Virus record (IMG/VR): IMGVR_UViG_3300030101_000994
Span: 1 to 58,301 of that record
Strand: one strand, 5' to 3'
Source of the DNA: a virus
Lineage: Duplodnaviria; Caudoviricetes
Length of the DNA stretch: 58,301 bases
A program made the position numbers and the translations under genes. How positions within the stretch are numbered: the stretch's first letter is position 1; each line of letters starts with the position of its first letter. Below are positions 7,494 to 51,973 of the stretch, in pieces. The notes under the pieces are model-generated. The model searched no databases. It had not been told where the DNA came from and saw only the letters and a program-made list of their open reading frames with translations.

Positions 7494-8282
7494 ATGGTAC
7501 CTTTAATTGCAGGCGGAGTTAGTTTTTTAATGGCTAAAGCCTCTGGTGCTTCAAACAAACAAGCTTTACTAGCAGGTGTTGTTGGTGGTTTAGGAGCGTA
7601 TGGAGCTGGACAATTAGGTGCTGCGTTAGCAGGACCTTCAGCGAGTGCAGGATTTGTAGGTGCACCAACTGCCACACAACTTTTTGGTCAAAAATTAGCA
7701 GCTAGTGGTATAGGACAATTTGCAGCAGGAACCGCTGCAGGAACACTACCATTAGCAATGGAACAAAACAAGATGGCAGATAAACAAGCTCAACAGTTAG
7801 CCAAGCCTTTTGGTGGAGAAGAAGCGTATACACAAGCTTACAATACAGCAGTACAAGACATGCAAGGTTTAGGTCAAAGAGCTACCTATGATGATCAACC
7901 AACTACAAATCAAAGTGTCTATAATTTTCAACCTCCTATGTTTACTGCAAGAGAAGGTGGTATTGCTAAAATAGCAAAGTATAGAGAGGGTGGTGTAAAT
8001 TACTTACCGAGTAAAATAGACCATGATGAAAAAGATGTTAATAATTATGTTCGTGCACAAGGCTACGTAGAGGATGGTAGTGGGGTAGGTGATAAAGATG
8101 AAGATACGATGTTGGCACAATTAGCAGATGGTGAGTTTGTAAGTAGAGCAGATGCAGTGTTAGGAGCAGGGATTATGAGTGGTGCTAATCCAAAAGATTT
8201 TAAAGAGATGAGAAAGTTCGGTGCTAAATTTTTTTACAATCAACAAGATCAGTTTAAAAGAATTTATGACATCACCGCATGA
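7494..8282 (+). CDS. Internal virion/ejection protein
   Basis: Gly/Ala-rich hydrophobic N-terminus; C-terminal EGG...DTMLAQLADGEFV domain; position. Confidence 0.6.
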   Translation: MVPLIAGGVSFLMAKASGASNKQALLAGVVGGLGAYGAGQLGAALAGPSASAGFVGAPTATQLFGQKLAASGIGQFAAGTAAGTLPLAMEQNKMADKQAQQLAKPFGGEEAYTQAYNTAVQDMQGLGQRATYDDQPTTNQSVYNFQPPMFTAREGGIAKIAKYREGGVNYLPSKIDHDEKDVNNYVRAQGYVEDGSGVGDKDEDTMLAQLADGEFVSRADAVLGAGIMSGANPKDFKEMRKFGAKFFYNQQDQFKRIYDITA

Positions 8283-8689
8283 TAGAAATAAAAAAATTAA
8301 ATCCAAACGAGTGTTGGAACAGAGTATCTGTTATGTTAGAAAAAGCAATTGAATTAAGTAATGGTAGGCATACATTAGAAACGACATACGAGTCTATATG
8401 TAAAGGTATTATGCAACTGTATGGAATATTTACTCACAAAACTTTAACCAGCGTATTTGTAACACAACGTATGGTTTATCCAGCAAAGCAAGTATTGTGT
8501 GTTTTATTTTGTGGGGGTAAAGATTTTATTACACACATAGAAAAAATTGTAAATTTTTTTAAAAATCTTTCTATTATGCAAGGTTGTAGAGGCGTAGAAA
8601 TTATAGGAAGAAAAGGTTGGACTAGAGTCAATAAAGAATACAAATTACCATTTAAAGAGAAGGGTTCTTATTATGAAATGGATAATTAA
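8279..8689 (+). CDS. Putative GNAT-like / virion assembly protein
   Basis: GCRGVEIIGRKGWTRV motif; position among the ejection genes, as for T7 gp13 / P22 gp14. Confidence 0.45.
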   Translation: MIEIKKLNPNECWNRVSVMLEKAIELSNGRHTLETTYESICKGIMQLYGIFTHKTLTSVFVTQRMVYPAKQVLCVLFCGGKDFITHIEKIVNFFKNLSIMQGCRGVEIIGRKGWTRVNKEYKLPFKEKGSYYEMDN

Positions 8690-9731
8690 ACTTTTACCAA
8701 TAAGTTTAAAAATTTGGTTATACAATATATTGTATGAAGATATAGCAGATAAGGGGGAATATGAAGATACTGAACTTGCACATGTTAATCCTTATGAAGT
8801 TAAAATTTTAAAACAATTAGGTGGTGCAGATAAAGTTAATACAAAAACAGGATTAAAAGGATATTTTGGTGGTGGAGGCTCTCCTGCTCCTGCTCCAGCT
8901 CCTAGTGGATCAGGCACACAAACTACCATATCTAGAGAAGCTCCGGGAATTGAATCTAGAAAATTAGCTTTATTTGATGAGGCAATAGATTTAGCTGGTC
9001 AACCCATATCTATACCAAGAATGGAAGTTGCTGGCGTTTCTCCTTTACAACAACAAGCCATAGAACAATCTGCAATAACTGGTGTAGGTCAAACTGCTGT
9101 AGATGCAGGCATAGCCTCTTTTTTAAAAGCTGCTGAAACAGCAGAAACTCCAATTAATGTTGATGCTTTTATGAACCCTTACGAATCTTATGTAGTTCAA
9201 GAAATAAACAGACAAGCTGATATTGGTAGAAATAGATTAGCCTCTGAAGCTATAGGATCAGGAGCCTTTGGTGGTGGTCGTGAAGGCGTTGCTTTAGGTG
9301 AACTCGAAGCAGGAAGAGCTAGAGCAATAGGTCAGGTTAGAGCATCTAATTATGATAAAGCTTTAGAACAGGCGACAAAACAAAGACTATTTCAAACAGA
9401 AGCACAAATGAACGTTGGGCAACAATTAGCCACTACTGGAGGTATGCAACAAGAGATGGCCCAATCTGATATACAACAGTTAGGTGGTGCTGGACAATTA
9501 CAACGAAGCATTGCTCAAGAAGGATTATCAGCGGATCGTGCAACTGAACTAGCAAGAGCATATGAGCCTTTTCAAAGAATAGAATTTGCAAAAGGTATTA
9601 TGACTGCCTTACCAACAGCAGCATCACAAGTTACACAAGCCTCTGCCCCTAGAGTTAATCCTCTATCTCAAGCTGTTGGAACAGGAATAGTGGCGGCTCA
9701 AGGTGCTACTATGTTAAAAGGACTTGGCTAA
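8673..9731 (+). CDS. DNA ejection/pilot protein
   Basis: DTELAHVNPYE...TGL N-terminal domain, FMNPY, GAFGGGR, Q/A-rich helices. Confidence 0.65.
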   Translation: MKWIIKLLPISLKIWLYNILYEDIADKGEYEDTELAHVNPYEVKILKQLGGADKVNTKTGLKGYFGGGGSPAPAPAPSGSGTQTTISREAPGIESRKLALFDEAIDLAGQPISIPRMEVAGVSPLQQQAIEQSAITGVGQTAVDAGIASFLKAAETAETPINVDAFMNPYESYVVQEINRQADIGRNRLASEAIGSGAFGGGREGVALGELEAGRARAIGQVRASNYDKALEQATKQRLFQTEAQMNVGQQLATTGGMQQEMAQSDIQQLGGAGQLQRSIAQEGLSADRATELARAYEPFQRIEFAKGIMTALPTAASQVTQASAPRVNPLSQAVGTGIVAAQGATMLKGLG

Positions 9732-12712
9732 TGGCTAAAAGGGGTAGACCACCAAAAAAAACTAGATTAGATAAAACTAAAGCTTTAGGTAGTGCAGGTT
9801 TAGCTGGATTAGGTAAAGGAATGAAAGGTTTAGGTAGAGGGATAAGTTATGGTACAGCACCTTTAGGATTAGCTTTTGGTGTACCCAATATAAAAGAGGG
9901 TATAGAAGAAGGAGATGTTTCTAAAACTTTTGTTGGTACGGGTGAAACTCTTGGTGGTCTTTATTCTTTAAGAGAGATAATAAGAAGATTGCCTGCTAAG
10001 AGCAGAAGTACAGCAATTTTAAAAGCAATAAATAAAGGATTAGATTATATACCTGGTGGTAAATTAACAAGAACTTTAAGTAAAAAAAGATTACCTGGAG
10101 AACAGACTTTTAGAGATAATCCAAGTTTAGCAGTACCAAGTTTAGTTGGGTTATATGGTGGAGAACAAGCTATTGATCAAATGGCTGATGTTTCAAGAGG
10201 TAAACCACCAGATGCTATGGTACAAGAAATAGCAAACATATTTAACGTAAGTCCAGAAGCTTTGCAACCACAAAGAGTTGTTACACAAGAACCAAGTGAA
10301 GAAGAAAAAGCAGAAAATTTAAGACTTGCTAGGTTAGACTCATACGAGCAAGCTGATGATAGAACTGGTTTAAAAGTAAATGTGCCTGAACTTGAAACTG
10401 AAACTGTTGACGAGCAAGCAGCCTTGACAGATGATTCACCTGACAGCGATGATAAAGATATACCTATTATAGCAGATAATACAGTTGACACTACTGAGAC
10501 AGAGGAAAAAGAAGATATTACTACAAATCAAGAGGTAGAGAAAACAGTAGAGCAAGATCAAGACCCTCGACAAAAAATTGTATCAGACACCGTTGCAGAA
10601 TTAGATAATATGGATCTTACTATATCAACTGGAGACGGCACTGATATTAATAATCCTAAAATAGTAGTGGGTGAAGATTTACCTGAAGAAGAGTCAAAAA
10701 TAGAACCTTTTAGTCAAAAAAATATGCAAGCTACTTTTGATAGATTAAAAAAAGTTGATGATCCTGTGCAGTTGATACTAGAAAGTAATATGAATGTTGA
10801 GGACTATGAAGACGCAGCTGTTAAATATAAACAAAATGCTTTGATAAGTATGAAATTGTTAAAAGATTTTGAAGCAGAAAACCCAAGAAATAAAATGACA
10901 TGGGATCAGTACAGAAATAAATTTAAAATTGATGCTAGAGATGAAACTAAAGATTTTATTTTGTTGAAGTTTGGACTTGGTTTGATGAGTGCAAGAACTG
11001 ATTTACCAGGTTTTAGTGGTTTTATGGATATTTTAGGCAGAGTAGGAGCTCAATCAGTGGATGAATTACAACAAGTTTATCAAGCAGAAAGAGCTAGACA
11101 ACAAAGATTACGTGAAAATTTTGCACAATACGAAATGCAACTCGAAAATAATGTAAGGGCAGATAAAGTAAATATGTTAAATTCACAACTAAGAATTTTT
11201 AACGATCTTAACAACAGTTTAATGAATTTAAACATTAAAAAAATAGATAATGATTTTCAATTAAATTTAGAACAAATGAGGTTAGAAGCTGATTTAAAAC
11301 AAAAGTTAATGGATATGAAGGCTGAAATGGCAAAAACCAATATAGAAATTACAAAAGACCTTATGGAAGCAGCAGATTTAAATCCTGAAACCGCTGATAA
11401 ATACACAATTTTATTTTCTCAAAATAATTTTTTACGAGGCACTCATATGCTTACTGGTATGAGCAAAGACGGTAAAATACAATTTGTTGATTCAAAGCTT
11501 TATGAAGATAAAGATAAAAATGTATTTATAGGAGACGGCTCTGCTAGAAATTTTATTCCTACTTATATTCATAACAATAGAGTTGACAGAGCAGTAGAAG
11601 TTTATGAAGACGAGCTTAAAGAACTAAATAAACAGATAAATCAAGAAAACGCTAAATTAATTACTGTAACTGTTGATGGTAAAGAACAAGTCCTTACTGA
11701 TGAATTGTTTCAAAAATTTAAAGACACTGAACAATTTAAAGATATTGATGAAGATCGACTAAATAACAATATAACAACAGTTGAAAAAATTAAAGAATTA
11801 AAAAGAGACAAATTTACTGTTGCAGGAAATATTGTTCAATTAGAGGACATAAGATTTAAAAAAGACAACACATCAAACCCACGTAAGGAAGAAATACCGT
11901 CTTGGATGAGAGGAGCGTTAACAAGTGCTAATTTAGCTTTAGGACAAACTGGTGAGATTTTAGCTTTGATGGACTATGCTCAAGCTAAAAATGATACCTC
12001 TCTAACTGGTTTTAGAGGTAGAATAGCAGAGCTGTTTTTAAATTTAAAAGATGTAGTTAATGCTACTGATCAAGAAGCAGTAAGTATTGACGACATAAAC
12101 AGTGAAATTACCAATAAAGCGATGAGTAATTTAATAAGTGAAAATGTAAAAATAGTAGATGCTAAGGGTAATGAAACAATTATCACTGTTGAAGAGATAA
12201 TGAAAAGAGCAGAAAAAGCAGGAGTTAAAGATTCTTTATTTGGGACAAATAGTAATCTTTATAAAAATATAGAGAAAAAAGCTGAATCTTTTATACAAGA
12301 TGGTAGTAAATTATCAGATGCTACAAAAAGAGCTATTCAAACAAGATTACGTGTTTTAGAAACCGTATTGACTTTCCAATTAGCTAATGCTTTAAAAGAA
12401 CAAGATCGTCTAACTGAAAAAAATATTGAAGAAGCAAGAAAGTTATTAAACTTATTTGGTTTTACAGGCCCTGGTGGTGTTAGAAACAGGGTATTAGCTA
12501 CACAAAAAACTATAAAAGAAAGATTTATATCAAATGTAAGAAATGCTCATTCTTCTGGAATGAAAGAGTCTGAAATAAATAATCTTGCAGAACAAATATA
12601 TTATGAGGTAAAACAAGAACATTTGAATAAACGAGTTGCAAACTATTTAAAGGTGCCAGAAAAAAATATAATTAGTATACAAGAAGAGTTACAAAAAAGT
12701 ATTGGAGAATAA
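9731..12712 (+). CDS. Large internal virion (ejection) protein with N-terminal AT-hook
   Basis: 993 aa helical/coiled-coil; KRGRPPKK at the N-terminus; position. Confidence 0.55.
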   Translation: MAKRGRPPKKTRLDKTKALGSAGLAGLGKGMKGLGRGISYGTAPLGLAFGVPNIKEGIEEGDVSKTFVGTGETLGGLYSLREIIRRLPAKSRSTAILKAINKGLDYIPGGKLTRTLSKKRLPGEQTFRDNPSLAVPSLVGLYGGEQAIDQMADVSRGKPPDAMVQEIANIFNVSPEALQPQRVVTQEPSEEEKAENLRLARLDSYEQADDRTGLKVNVPELETETVDEQAALTDDSPDSDDKDIPIIADNTVDTTETEEKEDITTNQEVEKTVEQDQDPRQKIVSDTVAELDNMDLTISTGDGTDINNPKIVVGEDLPEEESKIEPFSQKNMQATFDRLKKVDDPVQLILESNMNVEDYEDAAVKYKQNALISMKLLKDFEAENPRNKMTWDQYRNKFKIDARDETKDFILLKFGLGLMSARTDLPGFSGFMDILGRVGAQSVDELQQVYQAERARQQRLRENFAQYEMQLENNVRADKVNMLNSQLRIFNDLNNSLMNLNIKKIDNDFQLNLEQMRLEADLKQKLMDMKAEMAKTNIEITKDLMEAADLNPETADKYTILFSQNNFLRGTHMLTGMSKDGKIQFVDSKLYEDKDKNVFIGDGSARNFIPTYIHNNRVDRAVEVYEDELKELNKQINQENAKLITVTVDGKEQVLTDELFQKFKDTEQFKDIDEDRLNNNITTVEKIKELKRDKFTVAGNIVQLEDIRFKKDNTSNPRKEEIPSWMRGALTSANLALGQTGEILALMDYAQAKNDTSLTGFRGRIAELFLNLKDVVNATDQEAVSIDDINSEITNKAMSNLISENVKIVDAKGNETIITVEEIMKRAEKAGVKDSLFGTNSNLYKNIEKKAESFIQDGSKLSDATKRAIQTRLRVLETVLTFQLANALKEQDRLTEKNIEEARKLLNLFGFTGPGGVRNRVLATQKTIKERFISNVRNAHSSGMKESEINNLAEQIYYEVKQEHLNKRVANYLKVPEKNIISIQEELQKSIGE

Positions 12713-16087: not shown

Positions 16088-16310
16088 GATGATGTTTTGG
16101 AACATCTTGCTGACTATTTTAGCCTCAGCGTTTGGCTGGGCATTTAGCAAAATGTTTGCAGAAGTAAAACGCTTACAAATACTACTCAATAAAACCAGGG
16201 AAGAGTACCTGCCTCGTGACGATGCAAAGTCACAGACTTCTCAGATTCTAGAACAACTTCGTAGATTAGAAGTTAAACTAGATAGGTTTATTGAGAAACA
16301 AAATGGTTGA
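16080..16310 (+). CDS. Small membrane-anchored coiled-coil protein
   Basis: N-terminal TM segment, then LLNKTREEY coiled coil. Confidence 0.6.
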   Translation: MDEMMFWNILLTILASAFGWAFSKMFAEVKRLQILLNKTREEYLPRDDAKSQTSQILEQLRRLEVKLDRFIEKQNG

Positions 16311-16950: not shown

Positions 16951-16977
16951 GATAGTGTTATAACAAAGGAGTTTCTT

Positions 16978-17517
16978 ATGAGAAAAACTAAAGGGTACAG
17001 CAAAGGTGGTGCTAAAATGATGAGAGCCAGAGGTGGTAAGATGGCTAAAGGTTACTCAAAAGGCGGTGCAAGAATGATGAAAGCTATGGGTGGTAAAATG
17101 GCATCCAAAGGCGGCACAAGAATGATGCGTGCTATGAAAGGTAAAATGGCTAAAGGTTATTCTAAAGGTGGCACAAGAATGATGATGAAAGCTATGGGTG
17201 GCAAAATGGCTAAAGGTTACGCCAAAGGTGGATCTAAAATGATTAGAGCTCAAGGTGGTAAAGAGATTAAAAGACCTAAAAATATGATTAGTAGTGTTAG
17301 GACTATGAAAAAAGATCCTATGACTAAAAGACAATTGCAACTAGGTGGAGCAGGAGGAACTAGCAAACTAGCAAGTATGATTAATAAGTTACCAAGAGCT
17401 AGTAAATTAGCTTTATTAGGTGGTTTAACAGCAGGAACAATATCTCTTGTAAAAGAATTAAAACCTAAAGCCAAAGAAGCTGGAAGAAAACTTAGAAAAG
17501 CAAAAAACAAAAAATAA
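16978..17517 (+). CDS. Highly basic K/M/G-rich repeat protein (tandem xxGG units)
   Basis: AAGGAG RBS; repeats such as KGYSKGG, KAMGG, RARGG. Confidence 0.8.
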   Translation: MRKTKGYSKGGAKMMRARGGKMAKGYSKGGARMMKAMGGKMASKGGTRMMRAMKGKMAKGYSKGGTRMMMKAMGGKMAKGYAKGGSKMIRAQGGKEIKRPKNMISSVRTMKKDPMTKRQLQLGGAGGTSKLASMINKLPRASKLALLGGLTAGTISLVKELKPKAKEAGRKLRKAKNKK

Positions 17518-17518
17518 C

Positions 17519-33976: not shown

Positions 33977-34414
33977 ATGAAGTTAACTGAATCAAAAATC
34001 TGGTCTTACATTAACAAGATTCAAAAGCAGAAAAAAAATTGGCATTTTATAAGGATAGAATCCCATACAGTTAATGGAATCCCTGATATTAATGGTGTTA
34101 TCAATGGGCGTGAGTACTGGATAGAATTGAAGTGCAATCGTGGTAACAATATTGGATTAAGTAAGTATCAACTGTTATGGCATAGCAAAAGAATACAATC
34201 TGGAGGCAAATGTTTTATTCTGCATGCGACCGAGAAGCACGAGCATATAGAAATTCTCGAAGTGCGAGATTCCCGTTCCCGTTCTCGTTTCCCGTTTCCC
34301 GTTCGAATTGGTCTAGTGTCGTACCATCAGGAGCCGGGCAGCCCAGTGCTGCGTCCCGGGTCCCGGGTCCGGGAGGGGTTAGAAAGAGCCGTTGTTCAAA
34401 TGTCCCGTTTGTAG
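33977..34414 (+). CDS. PD-(D/E)xK nuclease (VRR-NUC / Holliday junction resolvase-like)
   Basis: ESKIW, RIES, GIPD, WIELK, LSKYQ..W; the C-terminus runs through repeat DNA. Confidence 0.75.
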   Translation: MKLTESKIWSYINKIQKQKKNWHFIRIESHTVNGIPDINGVINGREYWIELKCNRGNNIGLSKYQLLWHSKRIQSGGKCFILHATEKHEHIEILEVRDSRSRSRFPFPVRIGLVSYHQEPGSPVLRPGSRVREGLERAVVQMSRL

Positions 34415-34939: not shown

Positions 34940-34952
34940 GCCCGTTCTCGTT

Positions 34953-34990
34953 TCCCGTTCCCGTTTTCGGGAACGGGATTGTTTTGTTTT
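34953..34990 (+). terminator. Intrinsic terminator built from repeat units
   Basis: TCCCGTTCCCG-TTTT-CGGGAACGGGA (11-bp stem), then a T-rich tail. Confidence 0.65.
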
Positions 34991-35544: not shown

Positions 35545-35738
35545 AAATGCCGTTTCTCGTTTCAACTCTCGTTGGTGCGTTCGGCGTTTCTAGTTTCTGG
35601 TCGTGCTGCGATCCGCTGCGGCCCCGGAAGCCCGTTTCTCGTTTCAACTCCCGTTGGTGCGTTCGGCGTTTCTAGTTTCTGGTTCCAGTTTTTACCTGGG
35701 CCCAGGAGCAGCAGAAAATAAATATTTATGTGCGGACA

Positions 35739-38201: not shown

Positions 38202-38312
38202 ATGTTACAAAAACTTAAAACAATATTTCAAAAAATTAAAAAAAGACTTTTTGGTAAACTATGCGAATGTAAGCCAAAGAAAAGAGGCAGAGGTAGACCA
38301 AAAAAATCATGA
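38202..38312 (+). CDS. Small basic AT-hook protein (36 aa, not in ORF track)
   Basis: GGAG RBS; MLQKLKTIFQKIKKRLFGKLCECKPKKRGRGRPKKS; ATGA overlap with the next gene. Confidence 0.65.
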   Translation: MLQKLKTIFQKIKKRLFGKLCECKPKKRGRGRPKKS

Positions 38313-40849
38313 GTCTAAAGAAAAGAGGATTACGAGCTTTAGCAGATTTTTTTTCAAGAAGAAAAACTCCTGAAGCACCGCCGACACAAACAAGCACTGT
38401 TTCTACAGAGGCTCAGAGTTTAGAAGATGAGATCCGTAAAAGTCCTTTAACTAAAGAACGAGATCCGTTTTTACCAGCTCCACAAAAGCAAAGAGAGATA
38501 GCTCCATCAAGAGTGCGTCTTGAGCAAGAAGAACTTGATGAACAGATAAACTTATCGAAACAAAGAAGAAAACGAGCAGAAGAAAAACCTTTTGAGGATG
38601 TACACGTTTCACACAGAGGAGTATCTCCTGTAGAAGAATATTCTACAGTGCCTCGAGATGCGATGCCCTCGGGTTCTTCTTTGTATCAATACATATCTGC
38701 ACATCCTAGTGACAAACCACTAGCTGCAAAAGAATGGATTCGTTATTTAAAAAAAGGTATACAAAAAGGAGATCGTGTCAAAGTAGATAATCCTAATTTA
38801 AAAAATATAGATACAAGTATATCAAAAGAAGAACTTGCTGATTCTAATTTATTAGTATTAGAACCTGCTACAATAAAACCTACTTTTCGTTTAAAAAAAT
38901 TTGATACCAAACCCATAGATACTCCATCAAAGTTTGAAGAAAATTTAGAAGTGGGAGGGTATTTAAAAAGTGCAGAGAGTATAAATGCAAAATTAACAAA
39001 AGAAGAATTGTTAGGTATGGTTGCAGATCAACCAATGGCAAGAGCAAAAGTTACAGTTTTGGGATACCAAAATGTTCCTCAAATTGTAAAAGCAATTGAT
39101 GACGGACATGAAAAATTATTAGAACTAGGAACAAAAAATAATGCAATCATTAACAAAGCTATAGACGATGTTGATTCATTTGTAAATTTAACCGCACAAC
39201 AAAAGGAAGCTCTCAAAGCTAACTTAATGAATTTATTAGTTGTACCTACTTCAAGGTCAGGAGGAGTTACACCTTTTACTGCAATTCAAACACTTATTAA
39301 AGAAGGTAATCAAGTTAGTTTAAAACCTGCTGAAGTGGATGTTATGTTTGAATCAGCCATAAGACATTTATATGATAATTTACCATCTGAAGATAATCTA
39401 TTAAAACAAATTAAACTTCCTGGAAATAATCAAAGATTTGGAGAATTGTTTGGTGAAAATAAAAAAATGCTAGATACGCTTTTTTTATCTGGAGGAACAG
39501 ATTTAGGAGAAGCTTTTACTATACAAAAAGAAATAAAAAAAATTGCAGAGAGAACTAAAGATGATGTTGTAGGATCATTTTCTAATCCAAAATTTTTTCC
39601 TTCTGTTTATGGAAACGCTTCTTCCTATCGTATAACAGGTGGAGAAGAGTATATAGAATTTGTTACAAGAGTTCCTGATCCACAAGGAGTGATTGTTCGG
39701 TCAGGGGGACATTACGGTACTTTAACAGGACCTGATGGAGTGGCACAAAATTTACGACAACAAGCTTTGGCACATACAAGAGGACATATACGTTTTACAA
39801 AAGATGGTAAAAAAGTTTTTCTTATTGATGAACACCAGTTAGATAAGCAACAAAAGATAGGAGTGAAACTTGCACGTAAACCAGAACTAAGAAGATTAAA
39901 TCCGTACAACAGAGATTACTTTGATAATGTGGCTGGTTCACCAACTGAATCTTTAGTTACTGCACAAAAGAAAAAGTTACTAGAACAAATGACAAAATTA
40001 GACAAAGGTGTGCGAACAAGTGATGCAGACTTACAAGAAATAGAACGCATACGAGATCGTTTAGCAAATGTAGACGGACAGAAAAAATTCCATAACTTAG
40101 ATAATAATATGTTTGTTGAGGAATATAACAAGTTACTGAATCAAGAAGGTATAGAGTATCAACCTATGTTGCAAGAACATAGAAACTATACCATAAAAAT
40201 GTTATCAAAATATTTTGCAAAAGAAAGACCAGACATAGATTATATAGGCGTGGTTCCTTCTGAAATAAGTGGTGCTGCAAAAGGCCGAGGAACTGCTGCT
40301 GACTTTTCTCAATATGGAACTTTCTTAGGTAAAGCTGGTGCTAGACTAGATGGTAAAGTTTTGCGAGGACAAAGTTCAGGTACAAGTTCTGAAAGAAGAT
40401 TAACAAAACCTGATCAAGATTCTAGTTTTATGAAAGCGATGAAAAGTTTTGCAAAAAATTATAATGGCAAAATTGTAAAAGTAGATGTGGCACGAAGCGA
40501 TCCTAAAAAACAATATAAAGTATTAGCTAGAGAGAAAGCAAACACAAATACAGAAGGTTCTGATTTAGTAGAACAAAGATTAAAAGGAATGAAAATACAA
40601 GCACATGGCCCGATGACAGAACCTTATGTAGAACATCTTGGTGCGTTTAAAACTGATGCAGAAGCAGAATCGTTTAAAAATTTAGCAGGAATAAGTGGAA
40701 CTAAGTCTATAATACCTGATTCTAGTGCTACATCCAGATCATTGTATGACAAATATATTTTACTAGAACTGCCAAAAGATTTGGACAAAACTCCTGTGAA
40801 GATATATAAAAGCAAAGGGGGTCTAGTCGTAGACCTATTTAAATGGTAG
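38309..40849 (+). CDS. Large hypothetical protein between TerL and portal
   Basis: 846 aa; AHTR...DGKKVFLIDEHQLD motif; C-terminal YKSKGGLV. Confidence 0.7.
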   Translation: MSLKKRGLRALADFFSRRKTPEAPPTQTSTVSTEAQSLEDEIRKSPLTKERDPFLPAPQKQREIAPSRVRLEQEELDEQINLSKQRRKRAEEKPFEDVHVSHRGVSPVEEYSTVPRDAMPSGSSLYQYISAHPSDKPLAAKEWIRYLKKGIQKGDRVKVDNPNLKNIDTSISKEELADSNLLVLEPATIKPTFRLKKFDTKPIDTPSKFEENLEVGGYLKSAESINAKLTKEELLGMVADQPMARAKVTVLGYQNVPQIVKAIDDGHEKLLELGTKNNAIINKAIDDVDSFVNLTAQQKEALKANLMNLLVVPTSRSGGVTPFTAIQTLIKEGNQVSLKPAEVDVMFESAIRHLYDNLPSEDNLLKQIKLPGNNQRFGELFGENKKMLDTLFLSGGTDLGEAFTIQKEIKKIAERTKDDVVGSFSNPKFFPSVYGNASSYRITGGEEYIEFVTRVPDPQGVIVRSGGHYGTLTGPDGVAQNLRQQALAHTRGHIRFTKDGKKVFLIDEHQLDKQQKIGVKLARKPELRRLNPYNRDYFDNVAGSPTESLVTAQKKKLLEQMTKLDKGVRTSDADLQEIERIRDRLANVDGQKKFHNLDNNMFVEEYNKLLNQEGIEYQPMLQEHRNYTIKMLSKYFAKERPDIDYIGVVPSEISGAAKGRGTAADFSQYGTFLGKAGARLDGKVLRGQSSGTSSERRLTKPDQDSSFMKAMKSFAKNYNGKIVKVDVARSDPKKQYKVLAREKANTNTEGSDLVEQRLKGMKIQAHGPMTEPYVEHLGAFKTDAEAESFKNLAGISGTKSIIPDSSATSRSLYDKYILLELPKDLDKTPVKIYKSKGGLVVDLFKW

Positions 40850-40873: not shown

Positions 40874-41881
40874 ATGGGTTCAAAATATAAAATAGGAAAA
40901 GCTTTTTATTCAGAAATAAAAGAAAGTATTGGTGACTTAGGTAGAAGATATAGAAAAGAAACTGGTAAAAAAAGAGCTAGTATTGAGGATAAAGAGTTTA
41001 GAAAAATAATACAAGACAGAGTCAATAGAACACTTGAAGCTGATCGTTATGTAAAAAAATCCTTAAATGGTAGTACAAAAAAATATAATGAATTAATGAA
41101 AGTTAGAGATAAATTTAGTGGTGGAGGCACAATGAATAAGAAAAAGAAAAAAACAAAAGATCCTTTAGTAAAAAAATATGAAAGAATTAGAAACACAATA
41201 ATCGCTGCACCAGAGGTACAAGCGTTAGGTGAAGTCGTTAACGACTTGATTGGCATAGGAGGTTTTGATGATGGTGGTCTTAATGAAGGTATTAAATCAG
41301 TAAAAGCTAGTGAGAAACAAGCAGCTCCAGCAAGAAAAGCTGGGCAGATGCAAGCAGCTCCAGCAAGAAAAGCTGGGCAGATGCAAGCACCTCCCTCTGT
41401 AAGACCAAGTAAAAAACAACTTATACCACTAGACAAAATTAAAGGCAGAAGAAAACCTCTAGCCGATTTTAAAAGCAAAATGAAAAGAGCAAATGGTGGT
41501 TTGTTAAAAAAAGATAAAGCAAAATTGTCAAAAAAAGATAAAGCAAAACTAGCTGCATTAAAAACATATAGAAGAATAGCTCCTGCTGGTTCTGTAGCTG
41601 AAAGTGTGTATACTAAAATTACGGGAAAAAGAATACCTAGTGCATCTGATGTTTTTGGTAAACAATATAATATAAAAGGAAAACCCATTGGTAAAAATAA
41701 AATGAAAAGAGCAGAGGGTGGTTTTACGGATAATAGAAAAAAAATAGATAAGGCTCCTCCTTTTGGAGTTATTAATGCAGATGATTTTAAAGCCTTAAAA
41801 GCTATGAAAAAAAAATCAAATGGCGGATCTATTATGGTGCCAGTAAAGATGGGAAAAAATAAAATAACTAAAATAATGTAA
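40874..41881 (+). CDS. Very basic modular protein punctuated by xxGG motifs
   Basis: AGGAG RBS; FSGGG, FDDGG, RANGG, RAEGG, KSNGG. Confidence 0.7.
   Translation: MGSKYKIGKAFYSEIKESIGDLGRRYRKETGKKRASIEDKEFRKIIQDRVNRTLEADRYVKKSLNGSTKKYNELMKVRDKFSGGGTMNKKKKKTKDPLVKKYERIRNTIIAAPEVQALGEVVNDLIGIGGFDDGGLNEGIKSVKASEKQAAPARKAGQMQAAPARKAGQMQAPPSVRPSKKQLIPLDKIKGRRKPLADFKSKMKRANGGLLKKDKAKLSKKDKAKLAALKTYRRIAPAGSVAESVYTKITGKRIPSASDVFGKQYNIKGKPIGKNKMKRAEGGFTDNRKKIDKAPPFGVINADDFKALKAMKKKSNGGSIMVPVKMGKNKITKIM
41318..41389 (+). repeat. Perfect 33-bp tandem duplication (QAAPARKAGQM x2)
   Basis: CAAGCAGCTCCAGCAAGAAAAGCTGGGCAGATG at 41318 and 41351. Confidence 0.9.
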
Positions 41882-45254: not shown

Positions 45255-45499
45255 TGATAAAAAAAATTCATATCAACCAACACATAATTAGACGCAATAA
45301 AAAAAATAACACGACTGAACCAGTTATTACTATTAAGACATCTAAAAATAATTATTACGCAGATGAAGTAGAGATAAAAGGCAAATGCACTGTTAAGTAT
45401 AGTCCTACTAAACCTTTATCTTGTGGAGCAAGAGTCTGGATTGAAACAAAAGATGAAGTAATTATGAACAACAGTGATTTTTTGACTAAAATTTTGTAA
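45254..45499 (+). CDS. Hypothetical protein
   Basis: IHINQH..PVITIK..PLSCGARVWIET. Confidence 0.7.
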   Translation: MIKKIHINQHIIRRNKKNNTTEPVITIKTSKNNYYADEVEIKGKCTVKYSPTKPLSCGARVWIETKDEVIMNNSDFLTKIL

Positions 45500-45687
45500 T
45501 GTACGATATAGATACTATTCAAGTTCTACGAGCAAAAATAAGAGATAATTTAGAGAAATACAAAGAAGATGTCATCTATGGTGTAGACACAATGGAAAAC
45601 TTGCAATATGCTAGAGGTAGGATCAACGCATTAGAAACGTTGCTTCAGGATTTAAATGACCTGCAAAAGAAAGAAGAAAACTTATGA
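45499..45687 (+). CDS. Hypothetical protein preceding GroES
   Basis: Helical; QYARGRINAL. Confidence 0.7.
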   Translation: MYDIDTIQVLRAKIRDNLEKYKEDVIYGVDTMENLQYARGRINALETLLQDLNDLQKKEENL

Positions 45688-46091
45688 CTACGATTAACTT
45701 AAAAAGACGAGCCGAAGTTAAGATACCAAAAACACCACAAGAAACAGAAGAATATTTAGATACGATACCAGATCCAGTAGGATATAGACTACTTGTTAGA
45801 CCTTGGACTGGTAAAGCTAAAACTGATGGTGGTATTATACTTACAGATAAAACTCAAGAAACCAGAGAGATTACTACAGTCGTGGGACTTGTGGTTAAAA
45901 TGGGAGAACTTTGTTACAAAGATAAAACTAAGTTTCCTGAAGGACCTTGGTGTAAGGAGGGACAGTTTGTAATTTACGGAAGGTATGCTGGTGCTAGATT
46001 TAAAACTAATTATGGAGAGCACCGTATTTTGAACGATGACGAAATCATTGGAACTATTAAGAAACCCGAGGACATACTCGCATTATTTTAG
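45684..46091 (+). CDS. groES: Co-chaperonin GroES-like protein
   Basis: PVGYRLLVRP, KTDGGIIL, PWCKEG, YAG, ILNDDEIIG. Confidence 0.85.
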   Translation: MTTINLKRRAEVKIPKTPQETEEYLDTIPDPVGYRLLVRPWTGKAKTDGGIILTDKTQETREITTVVGLVVKMGELCYKDKTKFPEGPWCKEGQFVIYGRYAGARFKTNYGEHRILNDDEIIGTIKKPEDILALF

Positions 46092-46099
46092 GAGGTAAT

Positions 46100-46987: not shown

Positions 46988-46989
46988 AT

Positions 46990-47460
46990 ATGACTGAAAA
47001 ATTAGATAGAACTTCACGCAGTTCAAGGGAGAAGGTAGAAACACGTAATAAACCTTGGACTCCTCCATCAAGTCTGGATGCACCCCCTGCACCAAAAGGG
47101 TTCAAGCATCGTTGGATAAGAACAGAAAGCATTGGTTTTATGGATACAGGTAATGTATCTAAAAAACTAAGAGAAGGTTGGGAATTTGTACGAGCAGAAG
47201 AAGTCAAAAACCAACTTGGCGATCACGATTATCCAGTTGTGCAACAAGGACAATATCAGGGGTTAATCGGGGTTGGTGGCCTTGTGTTGGCAAGGATACC
47301 TGAAGAAGTAGTCGAACAACGCAAAAAATATTTCGAGAATATTACAGCAGATCAAGTTAAATCCGTTGACAACGACATTCTAAGGGAGCAACGTCCTGAG
47401 ATGCCTGTCAATATTGACAGACAATCTAGGGTAAGTTTTGGTGGCTCTCGCAAAAAGTGA
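46990..47460 (+). CDS. Head-module hypothetical protein
   Basis: WTPPSSLDAP..HRWIR..REGWEFV..GGLVLARIP. Confidence 0.7.
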   Translation: MTEKLDRTSRSSREKVETRNKPWTPPSSLDAPPAPKGFKHRWIRTESIGFMDTGNVSKKLREGWEFVRAEEVKNQLGDHDYPVVQQGQYQGLIGVGGLVLARIPEEVVEQRKKYFENITADQVKSVDNDILREQRPEMPVNIDRQSRVSFGGSRKK

Positions 47461-47469
47461 GAGTTTTTT
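47444..47469 (+). terminator. Weak intrinsic terminator
   Basis: GCTCTCGC-AAAAA-GTGAGAGT followed by T residues. Confidence 0.45.
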
Positions 47470-47495
47470 GTTAATTATTTTTAAGGAAATAAAAT

Positions 47496-48140
47496 ATGGC
47501 TAATACTAACGTATCGTTTGGCTTGAGACCTTTATCAAGATTAGGTTCAAGTTATAACACTACAGGTACTACTGAATACAGAATAGCCTCTGACAACTCC
47601 AATAGAATTTACCAAGGGATGCCTGTAATACCTACAGCAGCAGGGGTCATTGATGATCTTCAAGCAGCAGCAGGTGGAACAGTTTCTATCTTAGGTGTTT
47701 TCTATGGTTGCGAGTATGTTTCTAGTACCACAGGAGAAAGAATTTTCTCAAACAACTGGCCTGGATCTGGAGCTGATGCAAATCATCCAGTAAAGGCTTT
47801 CATTTATGACGATCCAATGCAATTATTTGTAATAGCAGCTGATGCAGGCGGTGGCAGTTTTGATACCGAGTCTGAAATTAGAGCAGCAATATTTTTAAAT
47901 GTGCAACTAGCAAATGGAAATAGTGGTAATAACACTACTGGTATTTCTACTGCTGTCGCAGATTTAAGTACAGCTGCTGATACTGCTTCTTTTCCTCTAC
48001 GTATTGTGGGTATTCAAGAAGATCCTGAAAACTCTGACTTTACAGCAGCAGGTATTCCGTTGATCGTTCGTATTAATAATCACTTTAATGCACCGAACGG
48101 CTCTATAGTCCAAGGTACAGTTTCAAACACAGGAGTATAA
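47496..48140 (+). CDS. Putative capsid decoration / minor head protein
   Basis: MAN...FGLRP; GVFYGCEY; immediately upstream of the major capsid gene. Confidence 0.6.
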   Translation: MANTNVSFGLRPLSRLGSSYNTTGTTEYRIASDNSNRIYQGMPVIPTAAGVIDDLQAAAGGTVSILGVFYGCEYVSSTTGERIFSNNWPGSGADANHPVKAFIYDDPMQLFVIAADAGGGSFDTESEIRAAIFLNVQLANGNSGNNTTGISTAVADLSTAADTASFPLRIVGIQEDPENSDFTAAGIPLIVRINNHFNAPNGSIVQGTVSNTGV

Positions 48141-48143
48141 AGC

Positions 48144-49055
48144 ATGGCAATATCTAGAACACAATTAGTTAAAGAGTTAGAACCAGGCTTGAACGCACTT
48201 TTCGGTTTGGAATATAACAGGTATGAAAACGAACATGCAGAAATATACATATCAGAAACTTCTGACAGAGCTTTTGAAGAAGAAGTAATGTTAAGTGGTT
48301 TTGGATCTGCTCCAGTTAAAGCTGAGGGTCAAGCAGTTCAATTTGATGATGCAAATGAATCTTTTACAGCAAGGTACACACATGAGACTATTGCTATGGC
48401 TTTTGCTATTACAGAAGAAGCTATTGAAGATAATTTGTATGACAGATTAGCTGGTAGGTACACAAGAGCTTTGGCTAGAAGTATGGCAAATACTAAGCAA
48501 GTAAAAGCTGCAAATGTTCTTAACAACGCATTTAACGCATCCTTTACTGGTGGTGACGGAGTTGAGTTATGTGCAACTAATCATCCGCTATTAAATGGTG
48601 GAACTTTTAGAAATGAATTAGCAACAGCTGCTGATTTGTCTGAAACATCACTAGAACAAGCATTAATTGACATTTCTGCTTTCGTTGATGAAAGAGGTTT
48701 AAAAATTTCTACTCAAGGGTTAAAATTGATAATTCCTAAAGAATTACAATTTACAGCTGAGAGAATTTTAAAATCTCCACAGAGAGTTGGTACTGCTGAT
48801 AATGACATTAATGCTATGGCTAACATGGGTATGATTCCACAAGGTTATAGAATTAATCATTTCTTAACAGATACTGATGCTTTCTTCATTATGACAGATG
48901 CTCCTAACGGTATGAAACAATTTGTTAGAGCACCTATTAAAACAGCTATCGAAGGAGATTTTGATACTGGTAATGTAAGATTCAAAGCAAGAGAGAGATA
49001 TTCATTTGGATTCTCCGATCCTAGAGGTGTTTTTGGCTCACCTGGTGCTGCTTAA
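48144..49055 (+). CDS. Major capsid protein (HK97 fold, Mu gpT-like)
   Basis: MAISR..LVKELEPGLNALFG, ITEEAIEDNLY, GDFDTGNVRFKARERYSFG. Confidence 0.9.
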   Translation: MAISRTQLVKELEPGLNALFGLEYNRYENEHAEIYISETSDRAFEEEVMLSGFGSAPVKAEGQAVQFDDANESFTARYTHETIAMAFAITEEAIEDNLYDRLAGRYTRALARSMANTKQVKAANVLNNAFNASFTGGDGVELCATNHPLLNGGTFRNELATAADLSETSLEQALIDISAFVDERGLKISTQGLKLIIPKELQFTAERILKSPQRVGTADNDINAMANMGMIPQGYRINHFLTDTDAFFIMTDAPNGMKQFVRAPIKTAIEGDFDTGNVRFKARERYSFGFSDPRGVFGSPGAA

Positions 49056-49074
49056 AAATCTCTAACGATAAACT

Positions 49075-49106
49075 AAAAGAGGGGACTTACATTGTCCCCT
49101 TTTTTT
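49075..49106 (+). terminator. Intrinsic terminator after the major capsid gene
   Basis: AGGGGAC-TTACATT-GTCCCCT followed by a T-run. Confidence 0.85.
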
Positions 49107-49119
49107 ATGTATACTGTAA

Positions 49120-49180
49120 TTACCAAGATTAATAATGGATATAGACTGGCTTGGCAGATACCCTAGAAAACTATATCTAC
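49120..49180 (+). ncRNA. Structured, possibly pseudoknotted RNA downstream of the capsid gene (possibly Mu-gpT-DE-like)
   Basis: GATATAG/CTATATC stem; inner CTG-GCTTGG-CAG hairpin whose loop can pair with upstream CCAAG. Confidence 0.5.
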
Positions 49181-49195
49181 AACTAGGAGAAAATT

Positions 49196-49657
49196 ATGGG
49201 AACAACTACTTTTTCAGGTCCTATTAAAGCAGGAACAATTAAAGAAACAACTGGTACTACAATAGGTACAGATATTAAAAATACTGGACAGGTTGTAATG
49301 GTGCAAACATTTGCAGTTAGTTTAGCAGCTGGAGCTGTTGCAGCAGCAGTGCAAGATGTTGTGATACCAGCAAATTCACAAATAATTGATTGTGTTATCG
49401 ATGTAATAACAGCAGCAAATACTGGCACTAACATAAGTGTGGGTGATACTGTTGGAGGTGCCGCTACACTTGTAAATACGTTTGGTATAGGAACTACAGC
49501 TGGTAGAAAATATCCAACAACTGAATCAGGCGGAGCTTTAGCTTGGGAAGATGTGGGTACTTCAGATATAAGATTAACTTTTACATCTTCTGCTACAACA
49601 AACGCAGGTGAAGTAAGAGTATCTGTTTTATATCAACAAAACACTAACTTAGCATAA
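49196..49657 (+). CDS. Putative virion structural protein
   Basis: AGGAG RBS; MGTTTFSGPIKAG; T/A/G/V-rich. Confidence 0.65.
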   Translation: MGTTTFSGPIKAGTIKETTGTTIGTDIKNTGQVVMVQTFAVSLAAGAVAAAVQDVVIPANSQIIDCVIDVITAANTGTNISVGDTVGGAATLVNTFGIGTTAGRKYPTTESGGALAWEDVGTSDIRLTFTSSATTNAGEVRVSVLYQQNTNLA

Positions 49658-49669
49658 TAGAGGTAAACA

Positions 49670-49978
49670 ATGAACTCAGATATAGGAGCAAAAACGCTTA
49701 CCTCGACTGGTTCAATTCAGTCAGGTAGAACAAGGTTGCTATCTATTTATTATGTTGGTCATGCGTCAGCTGGAAGTTTAACGTTTAAAGATGGTGGGGG
49801 TAGTGGTACTCAAAAGCTAGTTATTGCTACACCTGCTGGAAGTGCAGCTGATCAATATCAAGTTGATATGCCTTTAGATGGTTTACTTTTTAAAACTGAT
49901 ATGCACTTGACTATTAGCAACGTAACCTCTGTTACTGTTTTTGTAACACCGATTACTGCTGATACTGATAATGGCTAG
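49670..49978 (+). CDS. Putative virion structural protein
   Basis: Small beta-rich ORF, GAGG RBS. Confidence 0.6.
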   Translation: MNSDIGAKTLTSTGSIQSGRTRLLSIYYVGHASAGSLTFKDGGGSGTQKLVIATPAGSAADQYQVDMPLDGLLFKTDMHLTISNVTSVTVFVTPITADTDNG

Positions 49979-50255
49979 AAAACCAGATAAACAGCCGCCT
50001 AGAACTAAGAAGTATTACAGATCTACTAAGTCTGGAGCGGGAATGACTAAAGCTGGGGTTGCTAAATATCGAAGAGACAACCCTGGCAGTAAATTAAAAA
50101 CTGCTGTTACAGGTAAAGTAAAAAAAGGTAGTACGGCTGCAAAAAGACGTAAATCATTTTGTGCAAGAAGTGCTGGTCAGATGAAAAAATTTCCTAAAGC
50201 AGCTAAAAATCCTAATTCAAGATTGCGACAAGCAAGACGTAGATGGAAGTGTTAA
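49971..50255 (+). CDS. Small highly basic protein (DUF6321-like)
   Basis: GAGMTKAGV..NPGSKLK..KRRKSFCARS..ARRRWKC. Confidence 0.7.
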   Translation: MARKPDKQPPRTKKYYRSTKSGAGMTKAGVAKYRRDNPGSKLKTAVTGKVKKGSTAAKRRKSFCARSAGQMKKFPKAAKNPNSRLRQARRRWKC

Positions 50256-50717
50256 ATGAAACTATCAGATAATTTTAGCTTACATGAATTTACTAGGTCT
50301 CAAACTGCAATTAGAAATAACATTGACAATACACCAAGCGATAAACAAATATTTAATTTACGTAATTTATGTATTCATATTTTACAGCCAGTAAGAGATT
50401 ATTTTCAACAGCCCATGACTATAAGTTCAGGTTTTCGATGTGTCGAACTTAATTTAAAAATTGGGGGCAGTATTACTTCTCAACATGTGCAAGGTCAAGC
50501 AGCAGACATTGAGGTTCATAAGGTAGGAAACTTAGAGTTAAGTGATTGGATACATAATAATATGAAATACGATCAGTTAATATTAGAGTTTCACAAACCT
50601 GAAGAAGATCCTCATTCAGGATGGGTGCATGTATCTTACAGCACAGAAAATAATCGATTTGAATATAAAGAAGCATATAAAAATAAAGAAGGGAAAACAA
50701 GGTATAGGTTACGATAA
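50256..50717 (+). CDS. Peptidase M15A endolysin
   Basis: LSDNFSLHEF, SSGFR, SQHVQGQAAD, WVHVS. Confidence 0.9.
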   Translation: MKLSDNFSLHEFTRSQTAIRNNIDNTPSDKQIFNLRNLCIHILQPVRDYFQQPMTISSGFRCVELNLKIGGSITSQHVQGQAADIEVHKVGNLELSDWIHNNMKYDQLILEFHKPEEDPHSGWVHVSYSTENNRFEYKEAYKNKEGKTRYRLR

Positions 50718-50863
50718 TGGCAATGAATAGAGGCAGTATGAGACAACAAATAACAAAAGGTCCTATGAAGAAAAAAGTAGGATTATATAAAAAAGGTAAA
50801 AGAGTTAGAGTAGTACAAGGAAACAAAGGTAGACTTGTTAGAAATAATATTAGAACACGCTAG
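50717..50863 (+). CDS. Small basic protein (48 aa, not in ORF track)
   Basis: MAMNRGSMRQQITKGPMKKKVGLYKKGKRVRVVQGNKGRLVRNNIRTR; TAATG overlap with the upstream stop. Confidence 0.6.
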   Translation: MAMNRGSMRQQITKGPMKKKVGLYKKGKRVRVVQGNKGRLVRNNIRTR

Positions 50864-50892
50864 TAGACAGAACGGTAGCAAAAGTTTAAAAT
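50864..50892 (+). promoter_or_regulatory. Sigma70-like promoter
   Basis: TAGACA-17-TAAAAT. Confidence 0.5.
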
Positions 50893-50910
50893 ATAAAAAA
50901 AGGAAACAAC

Positions 50911-51210
50911 ATGACAAAATTATGCCCAAGAGGAAAAGCAGCAGCAAAAAGAAAGTTCAAAGTTTACCCCTCGGCCTATGCAAACGCTTACGCTTCAAAA
51001 ATTTGTGCAGGTAAAATAAAAGACCCGAGTGGAGTAAAACGTAAAGATTTTAAAGGACCTAAACCAGCAAAACAGGGAGGTGTTATGAATATGAATGACG
51101 GTGGTATGATGCCTCAAGGAACAGGTTCTTATATTAAACAAGATATAGACGGTGATGAAAGTTTTACAAACCCATCTACACAAGATTATTACAGAGATTT
51201 ATTAGGATAA
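50911..51210 (+). CDS. Small basic protein
   Basis: KLCPRGKAAAKRKFKVYPSAYAN; AKQGG, MNDGG; ends YYRDLLG. Confidence 0.7.
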   Translation: MTKLCPRGKAAAKRKFKVYPSAYANAYASKICAGKIKDPSGVKRKDFKGPKPAKQGGVMNMNDGGMMPQGTGSYIKQDIDGDESFTNPSTQDYYRDLLG

Positions 51211-51503
51211 TGTCTGGTTTAAAAAAATGGTTTGCTCAAAAGTGGGTAGACATTGGTAGTAAGAAAAAAGATGGCACATTTGCTAAATGTGGTAGAAGCA
51301 AACAAAAAGCAGATGCCAAAAGAAAATACCCAAAGTGTGTTCCTTTAGCAAAAGCTAGAAGAATGACTGAAGGACAAAGAAAAAGTGCTGTTAAAAGAAA
51401 AAGAGCAAAAGCACAAGGAGTTGGTGGTAAGCCAACTAATGTTAAAACGTTCACTGCTTACAAAGGTGGTTTAGCCGATAAATATTATGAAGGAGTTTTA
51501 TAA
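51210..51503 (+). CDS. Small basic protein
   Basis: GLKKWFAQKWVDI..YPKCVP; AYKGG; ends YYEGVL. Confidence 0.7.
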   Translation: MSGLKKWFAQKWVDIGSKKKDGTFAKCGRSKQKADAKRKYPKCVPLAKARRMTEGQRKSAVKRKRAKAQGVGGKPTNVKTFTAYKGGLADKYYEGVL

Positions 51504-51973
51504 TGTCTAGAATGAAACAATTACAAGCTTTAGCCAAAGAAGCTAGGGAAAAAGGCGATAGAGATAAATATGAAATGATACGAGGAGACATATTTAAGGA
51601 GTTTGACTTTGACATAGGTAAGTTTGGTTTAGGTGGTCTTTTATATAAAAAAGGTAAAAAGTTATTAGAAAAATCAGGTTTAATTGATGACCTACCTTCT
51701 ATGTATCGTAAAATGCGAGATGCTAAAGATAAAGGTGATTTTAAAAAATTTAAAAAATACAAATCTAAATCTACAAACGTAGTAAAAGATAGTAAAAGTA
51801 TGAAACAGTTTCAAAAAGAGTTAGATGAAGATTTACCTTTACCAAAAAATTTTAAACCAACTAAAAAGAAACCAGAAGGTAAAGTAGTTAGTATAACAAA
51901 AAAAAGTATGGGTGGTGAAGTTAGGGGTATTGGTAAAGCTATCAGAGGTTTTAATTTTAAGGGTGTTAGATAG
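51503..51973 (+). CDS. Basic hypothetical protein
   Basis: FGLGG, KSMGG; ends RGIGKAIRGFNFKGVR. Confidence 0.65.
   Translation: MSRMKQLQALAKEAREKGDRDKYEMIRGDIFKEFDFDIGKFGLGGLLYKKGKKLLEKSGLIDDLPSMYRKMRDAKDKGDFKKFKKYKSKSTNVVKDSKSMKQFQKELDEDLPLPKNFKPTKKKPEGKVVSITKKSMGGEVRGIGKAIRGFNFKGVR

Follow-up and report, generated by a model that had tools for sequence, protein, structure and literature searches.

The 58,301-nt stretch analysed here (the window; positions 1 to 58,301 of IMG/VR virus record IMGVR_UViG_3300030101_000994, Duplodnaviria, Caudoviricetes) encodes a short peptide motif built around a glycine pair, with the core consensus (K/R/F/Y)-(A/S)-x-G-G-(L/I/V/M/F), in proteins that are otherwise unrelated. 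Judged from protein sequence comparisons, the motif is real and conserved, is the same in kind as a joint within phage tape measure proteins, and lies at module boundaries. A first-pass annotation had described it as a genome-wide element of unrelated late proteins; the isoelectric points (pI) of the carriers and the conservation in orthologs support a portable motif common to structural-region proteins that are otherwise unrelated and for the most part very basic, although "genome-wide" was overstated, as about 8 proteins carry it. Our preferred interpretation, to which we give a probability of roughly 0.45, is that the strings represent one linear motif, the tape-measure joint, and that this element docks and clips basic proteins during assembly; we infer that the motif proteins are located in the virion, dock and are cleaved. 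The full GG...GEFV module would persist in 7494, a small protein of its own whose gene opens the ejection-protein cluster of a phage without a tape measure, and bare joints would be scattered over disordered stretches and termini of the basic proteins 38309, 40874, 16978, 50911, 51210 and 51503. The joint would serve as an exposed, flexible element through which proteins attach to the apparatus that exits the virion before the DNA does, and by which they are cut loose from it.

The 81 open reading frames (ORFs) of the window were treated as genes. By matches to PHROGs and Pfam, they include a terminase, a portal, an HK97-type capsid protein, two SU10-type adaptors, a cluster of ejection type, an M15 endolysin and a block of replication genes. 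Pelagibacter phage HTVC023P and phage DSL-LC04 have capsid proteins with 78% identity to that of the window. On the basis of this identity and the podovirus gene set, we consider the window a near-full genome of an HTVC023P-type (pelagiphage-like) podovirus. For comparison, 110 IMG/VR loci surrounding capsid-protein or 7494 relatives were retrieved, and orthologs were aligned.

Protein 7494 (positions 7494..8282, + strand; 262 amino acids, aa) combines a Gly/Ala-rich, moderately hydrophobic N-terminus with two invariant joint motifs, AREGG (aa 152-156, nt 7947-7961) and YREGG (aa 163-167, nt 7980-7994), and a tape-measure-type module with GEFV at aa 213-216 (nt 8130-8141). GG155 and GG166 were each kept in 25/25 orthologs, with a flank identity of 0.34 at GG155, and 58 columns, mostly C-terminal, were invariant among the 23 aligned sequences. 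The module can be written as [FYR]-A-x-GG-hydrophobic, a Gly-rich spacer, and D-[ST]-x-x-A-x-L-x-x-GE[FY]V-x-x-x-x-x-V. Protein 7494 fits this layout with AREGGI and YREGGV followed by DTMLAQLADGEFVSRADAV, when set beside Enceladus, LV6, DSL-LC04, lambda and the giant protein P0137 described below. In the proteins of mycobacteriophage Enceladus (gp16), Vibrio phage LV6 and DSL-LC04 (the 'tape measure'), the order is [RF]A.GG..., a glycine-rich spacer, SDSI.AMLS.GEFV... and [FN].GG. Such tape-measure modules often occur in 3-4 copies within proteins of more than 2000 aa, whereas the window has one, in a protein of 262 aa with an additional invariant segment, YLPSKIDHDEKD.

A profile built from 20 sequences of the C-terminal 123 aa of 7494 was searched against 1.84 billion representative proteins. 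It matched 161 proteins at E<=0.001, mostly of 250-500 aa with the module at the C-terminus. The matches also included two giants, P0137 (E 3.9e-5), which has 2482 aa, SLT and LysM domains and the module four times, and P0159 (E 3.5e-4), which has 2268 aa and the module three times. The modules of both giants follow [FY]A.GG[FY]V...SD[ST]I.ARLS.GE[FY]V...[FY]A.GG, with [FY]A.GG on both flanks. A further long match, P0144, is a repeat protein and looks spurious. When the C-terminal part of 7494 was compared with 50,697 phage records by tblastn, the matches were weak (E from 0.03), and 58 of the 60 matches listed fell in annotated tape measure genes. Together, these comparisons relate the C-terminus of 7494, at the level of sequence, to modules inside tape measure proteins. 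We rejected the idea that 7494 is itself a whole tape measure protein, a class that we defined by a long coiled-coil ruler, a gene between the tail chaperone and distal tail genes, and a long-tailed phage; it has 262 aa and belongs to a phage with podovirus-type genes. No further GEFV module was found in the window, where a hidden Markov model (HMM) of the 7494 module matched only 7494; the same model ranked 50911, 51210 and 51503 second, third and fifth of the 81 proteins, at E 0.36-1.2. Separately, the segment YLPSKIDHDEKD (aa 170-181 of 7494) is almost invariant in 23 orthologs and absent from the tape-measure module copies, and it could be a metal-binding or catalytic site; the invariant residues of 7494 include S173, K174, H177, D181 and E214.

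One real cleavage at such a motif is on record, in phage T5's tape measure protein. According to Linares et al. 2023 (PMC10038345), pb2 is cut in maturation after R1127, between a hydrophobic segment and a 'metallopeptidase motif'. The T5 record has NANSFVPR before the cut and AEGGMMYPGVSYQMGEHGTEVV after it, so that FVPR is severed from AEGGMMY...GEHGTEVV inside the motif and before A-x-G-G. The GE..(T)EVV element, which is the 'metallopeptidase motif', occupies the position of GEFV, and a hydrophobic stretch precedes the cut. The order of basic residue, cut and A-E-G-G-hydrophobic has its likeness in window protein 40874, with MKRAEGGF and MKRANGGL. By analogy with the T5 cut, cleavage in the window proteins is predicted just before the small residue, between x and A of x-A-x-G-G, and not after GG, which would leave the GG motif on the new N-terminus. 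Candidate cutting agents would be a host protease or the module itself. The two systems also differ, as pb2 has one motif copy in a 1219-aa tail-lumen protein that yields pb2* and pb2C in a long-tailed phage, and its cut is experimental, whereas the window phage is short-tailed, carries the motif in about 8 proteins, and has a cut that is only predicted.

The cutting of tape measure proteins is an old open point, of which lambda gpH is an example. In PMC12617516, gpH is converted to gpH* and gpHC with the loss of ~14 kDa from its glycine-rich C-terminal region, residues 818-849 remain bound to gpI, and neither the cleavage site nor the catalyst is known. In the lambda record (NC_001416), the C-terminal region of gpH contains HFATGGF, PAGIVHRGEFVF and GYATGGYV in this order and ends in MRDGGLFSGGGR. 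If these strings are the same functional element as the window motif, sites of cutting or docking could be predicted by a rule read from sequence; the lambda candidates would be HFATGGF and GYATGGYV, with cleavage expected, on the model of T5, immediately ahead of the A in A-T-G-G.

Outside 7494, the motif occurs as bare copies, one of them at the C-terminus of 38309 (38309..40849, + strand), an 846-aa basic protein encoded between the terminase and the portal. Its tag, KSKGGLVVDLFKW (aa 834-846, nt 40808-40846), takes the form [YF]K..GG[LF], which was kept in 6/6 IMG/VR homologs at an overall identity of only 23-30%; the homologs end in LYKSKGGLVVNIFKW, LYKKTGGLVVDIFKW, GYFKGGLVRSGFKW, LYKHTGGLIEDIFK..., TYKAKGGLVVDMFK... 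and IYKKFGGFINKNLF.... In the ortholog alignment, GG837 was kept in 5/5 sequences at a mean protein identity of 19%, and Y833, G837, G838 and F844 were invariant. An internal ...E.QSD..Q... block is also conserved in 7 homologs. The DSL-LC04 counterpart is annotated as PcfJ-like, Pfam finds nothing, and HTVC023P has only a 201-aa protein in its place; a search of 38309 against the Atlas returned no match (best 0.83).

Protein 40874 (40874..41881, + strand) is a 335-aa mosaic with a pI of 10.4 and copies of the motif at aa 81-85 (FSGGG), 129-135 (GGFDDGG), 205-209 (RANGG, nt 41486-41500), 279-283 (RAEGG, nt 41708-41722) and 314-318 (KSNGG). A search of 5.8 billion proteins returned 14 homologs, of which 9 keep A.GGF and all 14 keep G317; tblastn against phages gave no match. 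Because RANGG and RAEGG both lie within a 33-nt direct repeat (41470-41502 and 41692-41724, 88% identical, 222 nt apart), they are not independent instances. The 74-aa stretch between them is absent from 14/14 homologs, which identifies it as an insert bounded by a duplicated motif. This repeat, flanking the insert, together with the shuffling of modules and tails between families, is what would be expected if the codons were DNA microhomology for module exchange and the peptide had no biochemical role. We regard that explanation as quite unlikely, since the residues are kept despite several glycine codons in the window copies (GGT, GGA, GGC, GGG), and the 7494 motif is invariant in 25 orthologs with no exchange seen there.

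Protein 16978 (16978..17517, + strand; 179 aa, pI 11.8) contains an array of tandem units of ~19 aa, KGYSKGG-x-MM-x-A-x-GGKMA, encoded by a tandem DNA repeat that Tandem Repeats Finder (TRF) reports with a period of 57 nt and 4.9 copies at 16988-17262. Its nine motif instances derive from this one array and are non-independent. Its relatives have 2-8 array units joined to different C-terminal domains.

Three small basic proteins encoded in succession show the motif in linkers, at fusion points and near exchanged tails. The 99-aa protein 50911 (50911..51210, + strand) has a conserved Cys-containing N-domain, a hypervariable linker with GG motifs and a C-terminal YYRDLLG tail. Across 19 aligned sequences the N-domain is nearly identical, the linkers vary in length and in their copies of x-GG-hydrophobic, and most sequences end in YYKDL[LM]; GG64 was kept in 6/14 orthologs and GG56 in 1/14, the copies shifting within the linker. 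The neighbouring 97-aa protein 51210 (51210..51503, + strand) ends in AYKGGLADKYYEGVL, with the C-terminal GG86 kept in 11-13/20 orthologs. In its family, x-GGL stands directly before the conserved KKWF domain in 8/23 aligned rows; in two of these rows (L068, L030) an upstream Cys domain is fused to the 51210 domain through MK.GGL, and in two orthologs (L012, L013) an insert of ~110 aa separates a degenerate copy from a complete one, FAKGG[FL]. In the Atlas, 51210 had only a feature-neighbour cluster, in which DUF5872 occurs in 14% of members. The 156-aa protein 51503 (51503..51973, + strand) ends in KSMGGEVRGIGKAIRGFNFKGVR, a tail type common to members of the 40874 and 50911 families; related tails are ...RGGGIAIKGTKFKGVF in P0012-P0014, the shorter ...GGKSAIRGTKFKGVF in P0011, and those of HTVC023P gp51, L068 and L016. 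The ending ...GTKFKGVF occurs in the 40874, 50911 and 51503 families, and YYKD[IL][LM] in the 50911 and 51210 families. The position of the motif at insert flanks, at points of fusion and fission and by swapped tails supports its assignment to module joints, as read from these alignments. As observations in their own right, two further portable C-terminal tails recur among small basic proteins of different families, in the window at 50911-51973 and in L068, L030, HTVC023P gp51 and P0011-P0014, one ending in YYK[DG][IL][LM] and the other in G..A[IV][RK]G..FKGV[FR].

All xxGG strings quoted in the first-pass annotation were found at the genes that it named. As a recurring motif of unrelated proteins, the core is present and conserved, whereas the raw count was inflated by repeats and several of the strings are unconserved. 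AKQGG of 50911 is unconserved and FGLGG of 51503 has too few orthologs to be judged (2 matches only), and both were treated as background. The C-terminal KSVGG of 12713, which the annotation had not listed, was conserved in 1/6; it is coded GGAGGA, 8 nt upstream of the next start, and is probably the ribosome-binding site of the next gene. A Shine-Dalgarno-like origin was rejected for the motif in general: its sites are mostly coded GGTGGT, as are 47 of the 135 GG pairs genome-wide, and this argues for a motif at the protein level rather than a by-product of the GGAGG ribosome-binding sequence. The carriers are encoded in the structural region and are strongly basic, with pI 9.2-11.8 for 38309, 40874, 16978, 50911, 51210 and 51503, where the median over the genome is 6.2. 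Pfam, NCBIfam and PDB sequences held no match to the motif proteins, and no paper describing the motif as a general element was found in the literature searched, which was non-exhaustive.

We then weighed the possibility that most instances reflect chance or composition, that is, Gly/Lys-rich low-complexity proteins with internal repeats, the 7494 module alone being functional. For the GG dipeptide by itself the excess is mild (135 observed versus 108 expected from the composition of each protein), with a notable surplus in single proteins only for 16978 (12 versus 5.2) and 40874 (7 versus 3.0). The pattern [KRFYM][AS].GG, which was set post hoc, occurred 19 times in the window versus 3.6 times in within-protein shuffles, a count reached in 0/500 of them. 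Without 16978, it occurred 11 times versus 3.2 (1/500), and counted per protein the excess was 7-8 versus 3.1-3.3 (8-17/500). Control patterns in which AA, SS or G.G replaced GG were not enriched. Measured against the composition-matched background that the annotation had named, the excess is moderate, the pattern is post hoc, and a pattern derived from relatives gave a flat result in the window. That pattern, [FYM][ANKSY].GG[LIVM], was independently enriched in HTVC023P (4 versus 0.9; 1/500 shuffles) and DSL-LC04 (5 versus 0.9; 0/500). Late proteins held 8/8, 11/12 and 11/11 matches, but late genes account for 69% of residues and the enrichment was weak (P 0.05, 0.08 and 0.02). A general bias of regex matches to protein ends was not supported among 1675 non-redundant proteins of relatives, where 27 matches lay within 25 residues of the C-terminus (23.3 expected) and 16 within 10 of the N-terminus (9.0 expected). 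Chance is favoured by the mild dipeptide excess, the instances that trace to one array and one duplication, the small excess per protein, the unconserved strings such as GG56 of 50911 and the flat result in the window. Nevertheless, the motif forms islands of conservation in proteins of 19-30% overall identity, recurs at shifted positions in the hypervariable linkers of orthologs, and is enriched in two related phages while the controls are not; we therefore consider a mostly compositional origin unlikely.

Several results weigh against the interpretation of a joint that both docks and clips. The enrichment in the window is moderate, its patterns were defined after looking, and the relatives-derived pattern was not enriched there (1 versus 0.8). 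An hhalign comparison of the 7494 family with the single lambda gpH and T5 pb2 sequences was not significant (probability <1%): it gave 0.5% for lambda gpH, over a 7-column match of AKYREGG to RGYATGG, and 0.2% for T5 pb2, so that the link of 7494 to these proteins is one of motif and layout, not demonstrated homology. No protease was found, the sole peptidase family assigned by PHROGs and Pfam in the 81 proteins, about half of which have no family assignment, being the M15 endolysin. The position ahead of the small residue may hold R, K, F, Y or A, a variability that is odd for one sequence-specific protease. Virion proteomics of this phage group was not found in the literature searched, and PMC9599517 mentions neither it nor ejection, a tape measure or a protease. 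Furthermore, in PMC9509320, five ejection proteins of phage SU10 are named (gp20-gp24), among them gp22; we found no GE[FYW][VIL] and no clear joint motif in gp20-gp24. Motif plus GEFV, being absent from the SU10 ejection proteins, is therefore no feature by which ejection proteins of podoviruses can be told in general. Only gp22, which starts MGLFGGGGS, resembles a window protein, 8673.

The remaining objection concerns position. Both 38309 and the stand-alone 51210 orthologs keep the motif at the very N- or C-terminus, which fits a docking peptide better than a cut site and makes a docking-only role almost as likely. In such a role, which we regard as possible, the joint would fold on binding, for example as an added strand, and anchor proteins in the procapsid, portal or tail channel without ever being cut. 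The motif occupies the extreme C-terminus in 6/6 homologs of 38309 and the N-terminus in 8/23 stand-alone 51210 orthologs, and a cut there would free merely a few residues. The motif remains on pb2C after the T5 cut, and the piece of lambda gpH that is reported to be bound to gpI includes MRDGGLF. The predicted disorder of 7494 alone is also compatible with folding on binding (monomer model, mean predicted local distance difference test (pLDDT) score 43). Conversely, the sole experimentally mapped event at such a motif, in T5, is a cleavage, and the inserts between duplicated motifs resemble polyprotein joints. No docking partner was identified. A complex predicted from three copies of 7494 (residues 140-262) and the C-terminal part of 38309 (780-846) reached scores of 0.02 and 0.01, below the mark of 0.32, which counts neither for nor against an interaction.

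The annotation had likened the motif to the sites of the adenovirus and African swine fever virus (ASFV) proteases and had named 46990 as a candidate protease. Adenovirus protease and ASFV pS273R are dedicated cysteine proteases that cut after GG in basic core-protein precursors. The window shares with their sites the GG dipeptide, and its carriers are basic and core-like; GG-X sites are indeed those that such proteases use. The analogy is not supported by T5, where the one mapped cut lies before A-x-G-G, three residues before GG. No cysteine-protease family or fold turned up in the 81 proteins by PHROGs, Pfam and the 46990 model, about half of the proteins having no family assignment. Protein 46990 (46990..47460, + strand) is a 156-aa head-module protein whose model (pLDDT 74) lacks a protease-like fold: Foldseek against PDB brought nothing to E<=0.001 (best 0.84), the highest Z among the 48,161 chains compared by VIA-align was 3.8 (GNAT fragments), and the 12 BFVD matches at E<=0.001 were all uncharacterised phage proteins. 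We consider it very improbable that basic core proteins mature here through cuts after GG made by a cysteine protease of the adenain/ASFV type, whether 46990 or another. A portable loading or processing tag is plausible in kind, by docking or processing, and it is the adenovirus/ASFV mode that is disfavoured. Protein 46990 has a conserved C-terminal FGG.RK(K), with FGG (...RVSFGGSRKK, aa 150-156) kept in 55/59 orthologs and absent from the annotation's list. Its S27, H40 and D52 are invariant in 33 sequences, and the fold has no known relative.

A parallel in concept is the capsid-targeting sequence of phage T4, a short N-terminal portable peptide that loads unrelated basic internal proteins into the head, after which the prohead protease gp21 removes it by a cut behind Glu. 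The likeness to the window motif, as a putative portable loading peptide that would then be clipped, is conceptual only, and no prohead protease was found among the window's 81 proteins.

A more far-reaching form of the preferred interpretation is that the joint has been freed as a trans-acting tag system, in which 7494 would be the common receptor or a self-acting cutter between x and A of x-A-x-G-G; we hold this as tentative and rather unlikely. In podoviruses without a tape measure, unrelated basic proteins and the 846-aa protein would then be committed to the ejected cargo by the (K/R/F/Y)-A-x-G-G-hydrophobic peptide on its own, in many cases with an exchangeable C-terminal tail after it (YYKDLL, GTKFKGVF or VVDIFKW), and the same chemistry would explain the cleavage of lambda gpH and T5 pb2. 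If the window motif is the same functional element as in tape measures, that element would work outside them, the small basic proteins would be probable injected cargo, and portable tags might be usable for loading foreign proteins into phage particles. HTVC023P-type phages rank among the most abundant surface-ocean viruses, and to our knowledge almost nothing is known of their virion contents.

Two further proteins were examined. The 352-aa ejection-type protein 8673 (8673..9731, + strand) matches phrog_4287 'DNA ejection protein' (E 2.5e-8) and contains GYFGGGG at aa 63-69 (nt 8859-8879), a site absent from the annotation's list; GG66/67 was kept in 20-21/21 orthologs with a flank identity of 0.26. 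This is a related glycine run, different from the joint motif. In the alignment of 46100, one part looks like a coiled coil and the C-terminus has a conserved KLT.SQVAIAKKLGVPLEEYAK; the protein may be scaffold-like.

Elsewhere in the window, the first and last ORFs (1-642 and 57113-58300) match a single fibre-like family in consecutive sections (phrog_19943 positions 1067-1225 and 694-1016; DUF7483), which indicates that the window is a permuted and nearly complete genome in which a short part of the junction is either lacking or not in frame. Short tandem repeats of the TTCCCG(T) type, together with a repeat of 41 nt (34270-34304, 34941-34966 and 35552-35684), lie in a GC-richer intergenic region between divergent early genes and the terminase, and could be regulatory or origin-like elements. 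A GroES-like co-chaperonin (45684-46091, + strand; Cpn10, E 1.7e-10) is encoded within the head module, likewise in HTVC023P and DSL-LC04. Among the tail genes, 5449-5766 (+ strand) encodes a 105-aa protein that matches the SET domain (PF00856, E 1.7e-8) and adjoins the genes for a glycosyltransferase and a 2OG-Fe(II) oxygenase; an enzyme resembling lysine methyltransferases is of note given the many lysine-rich structural-region proteins in the same phage.

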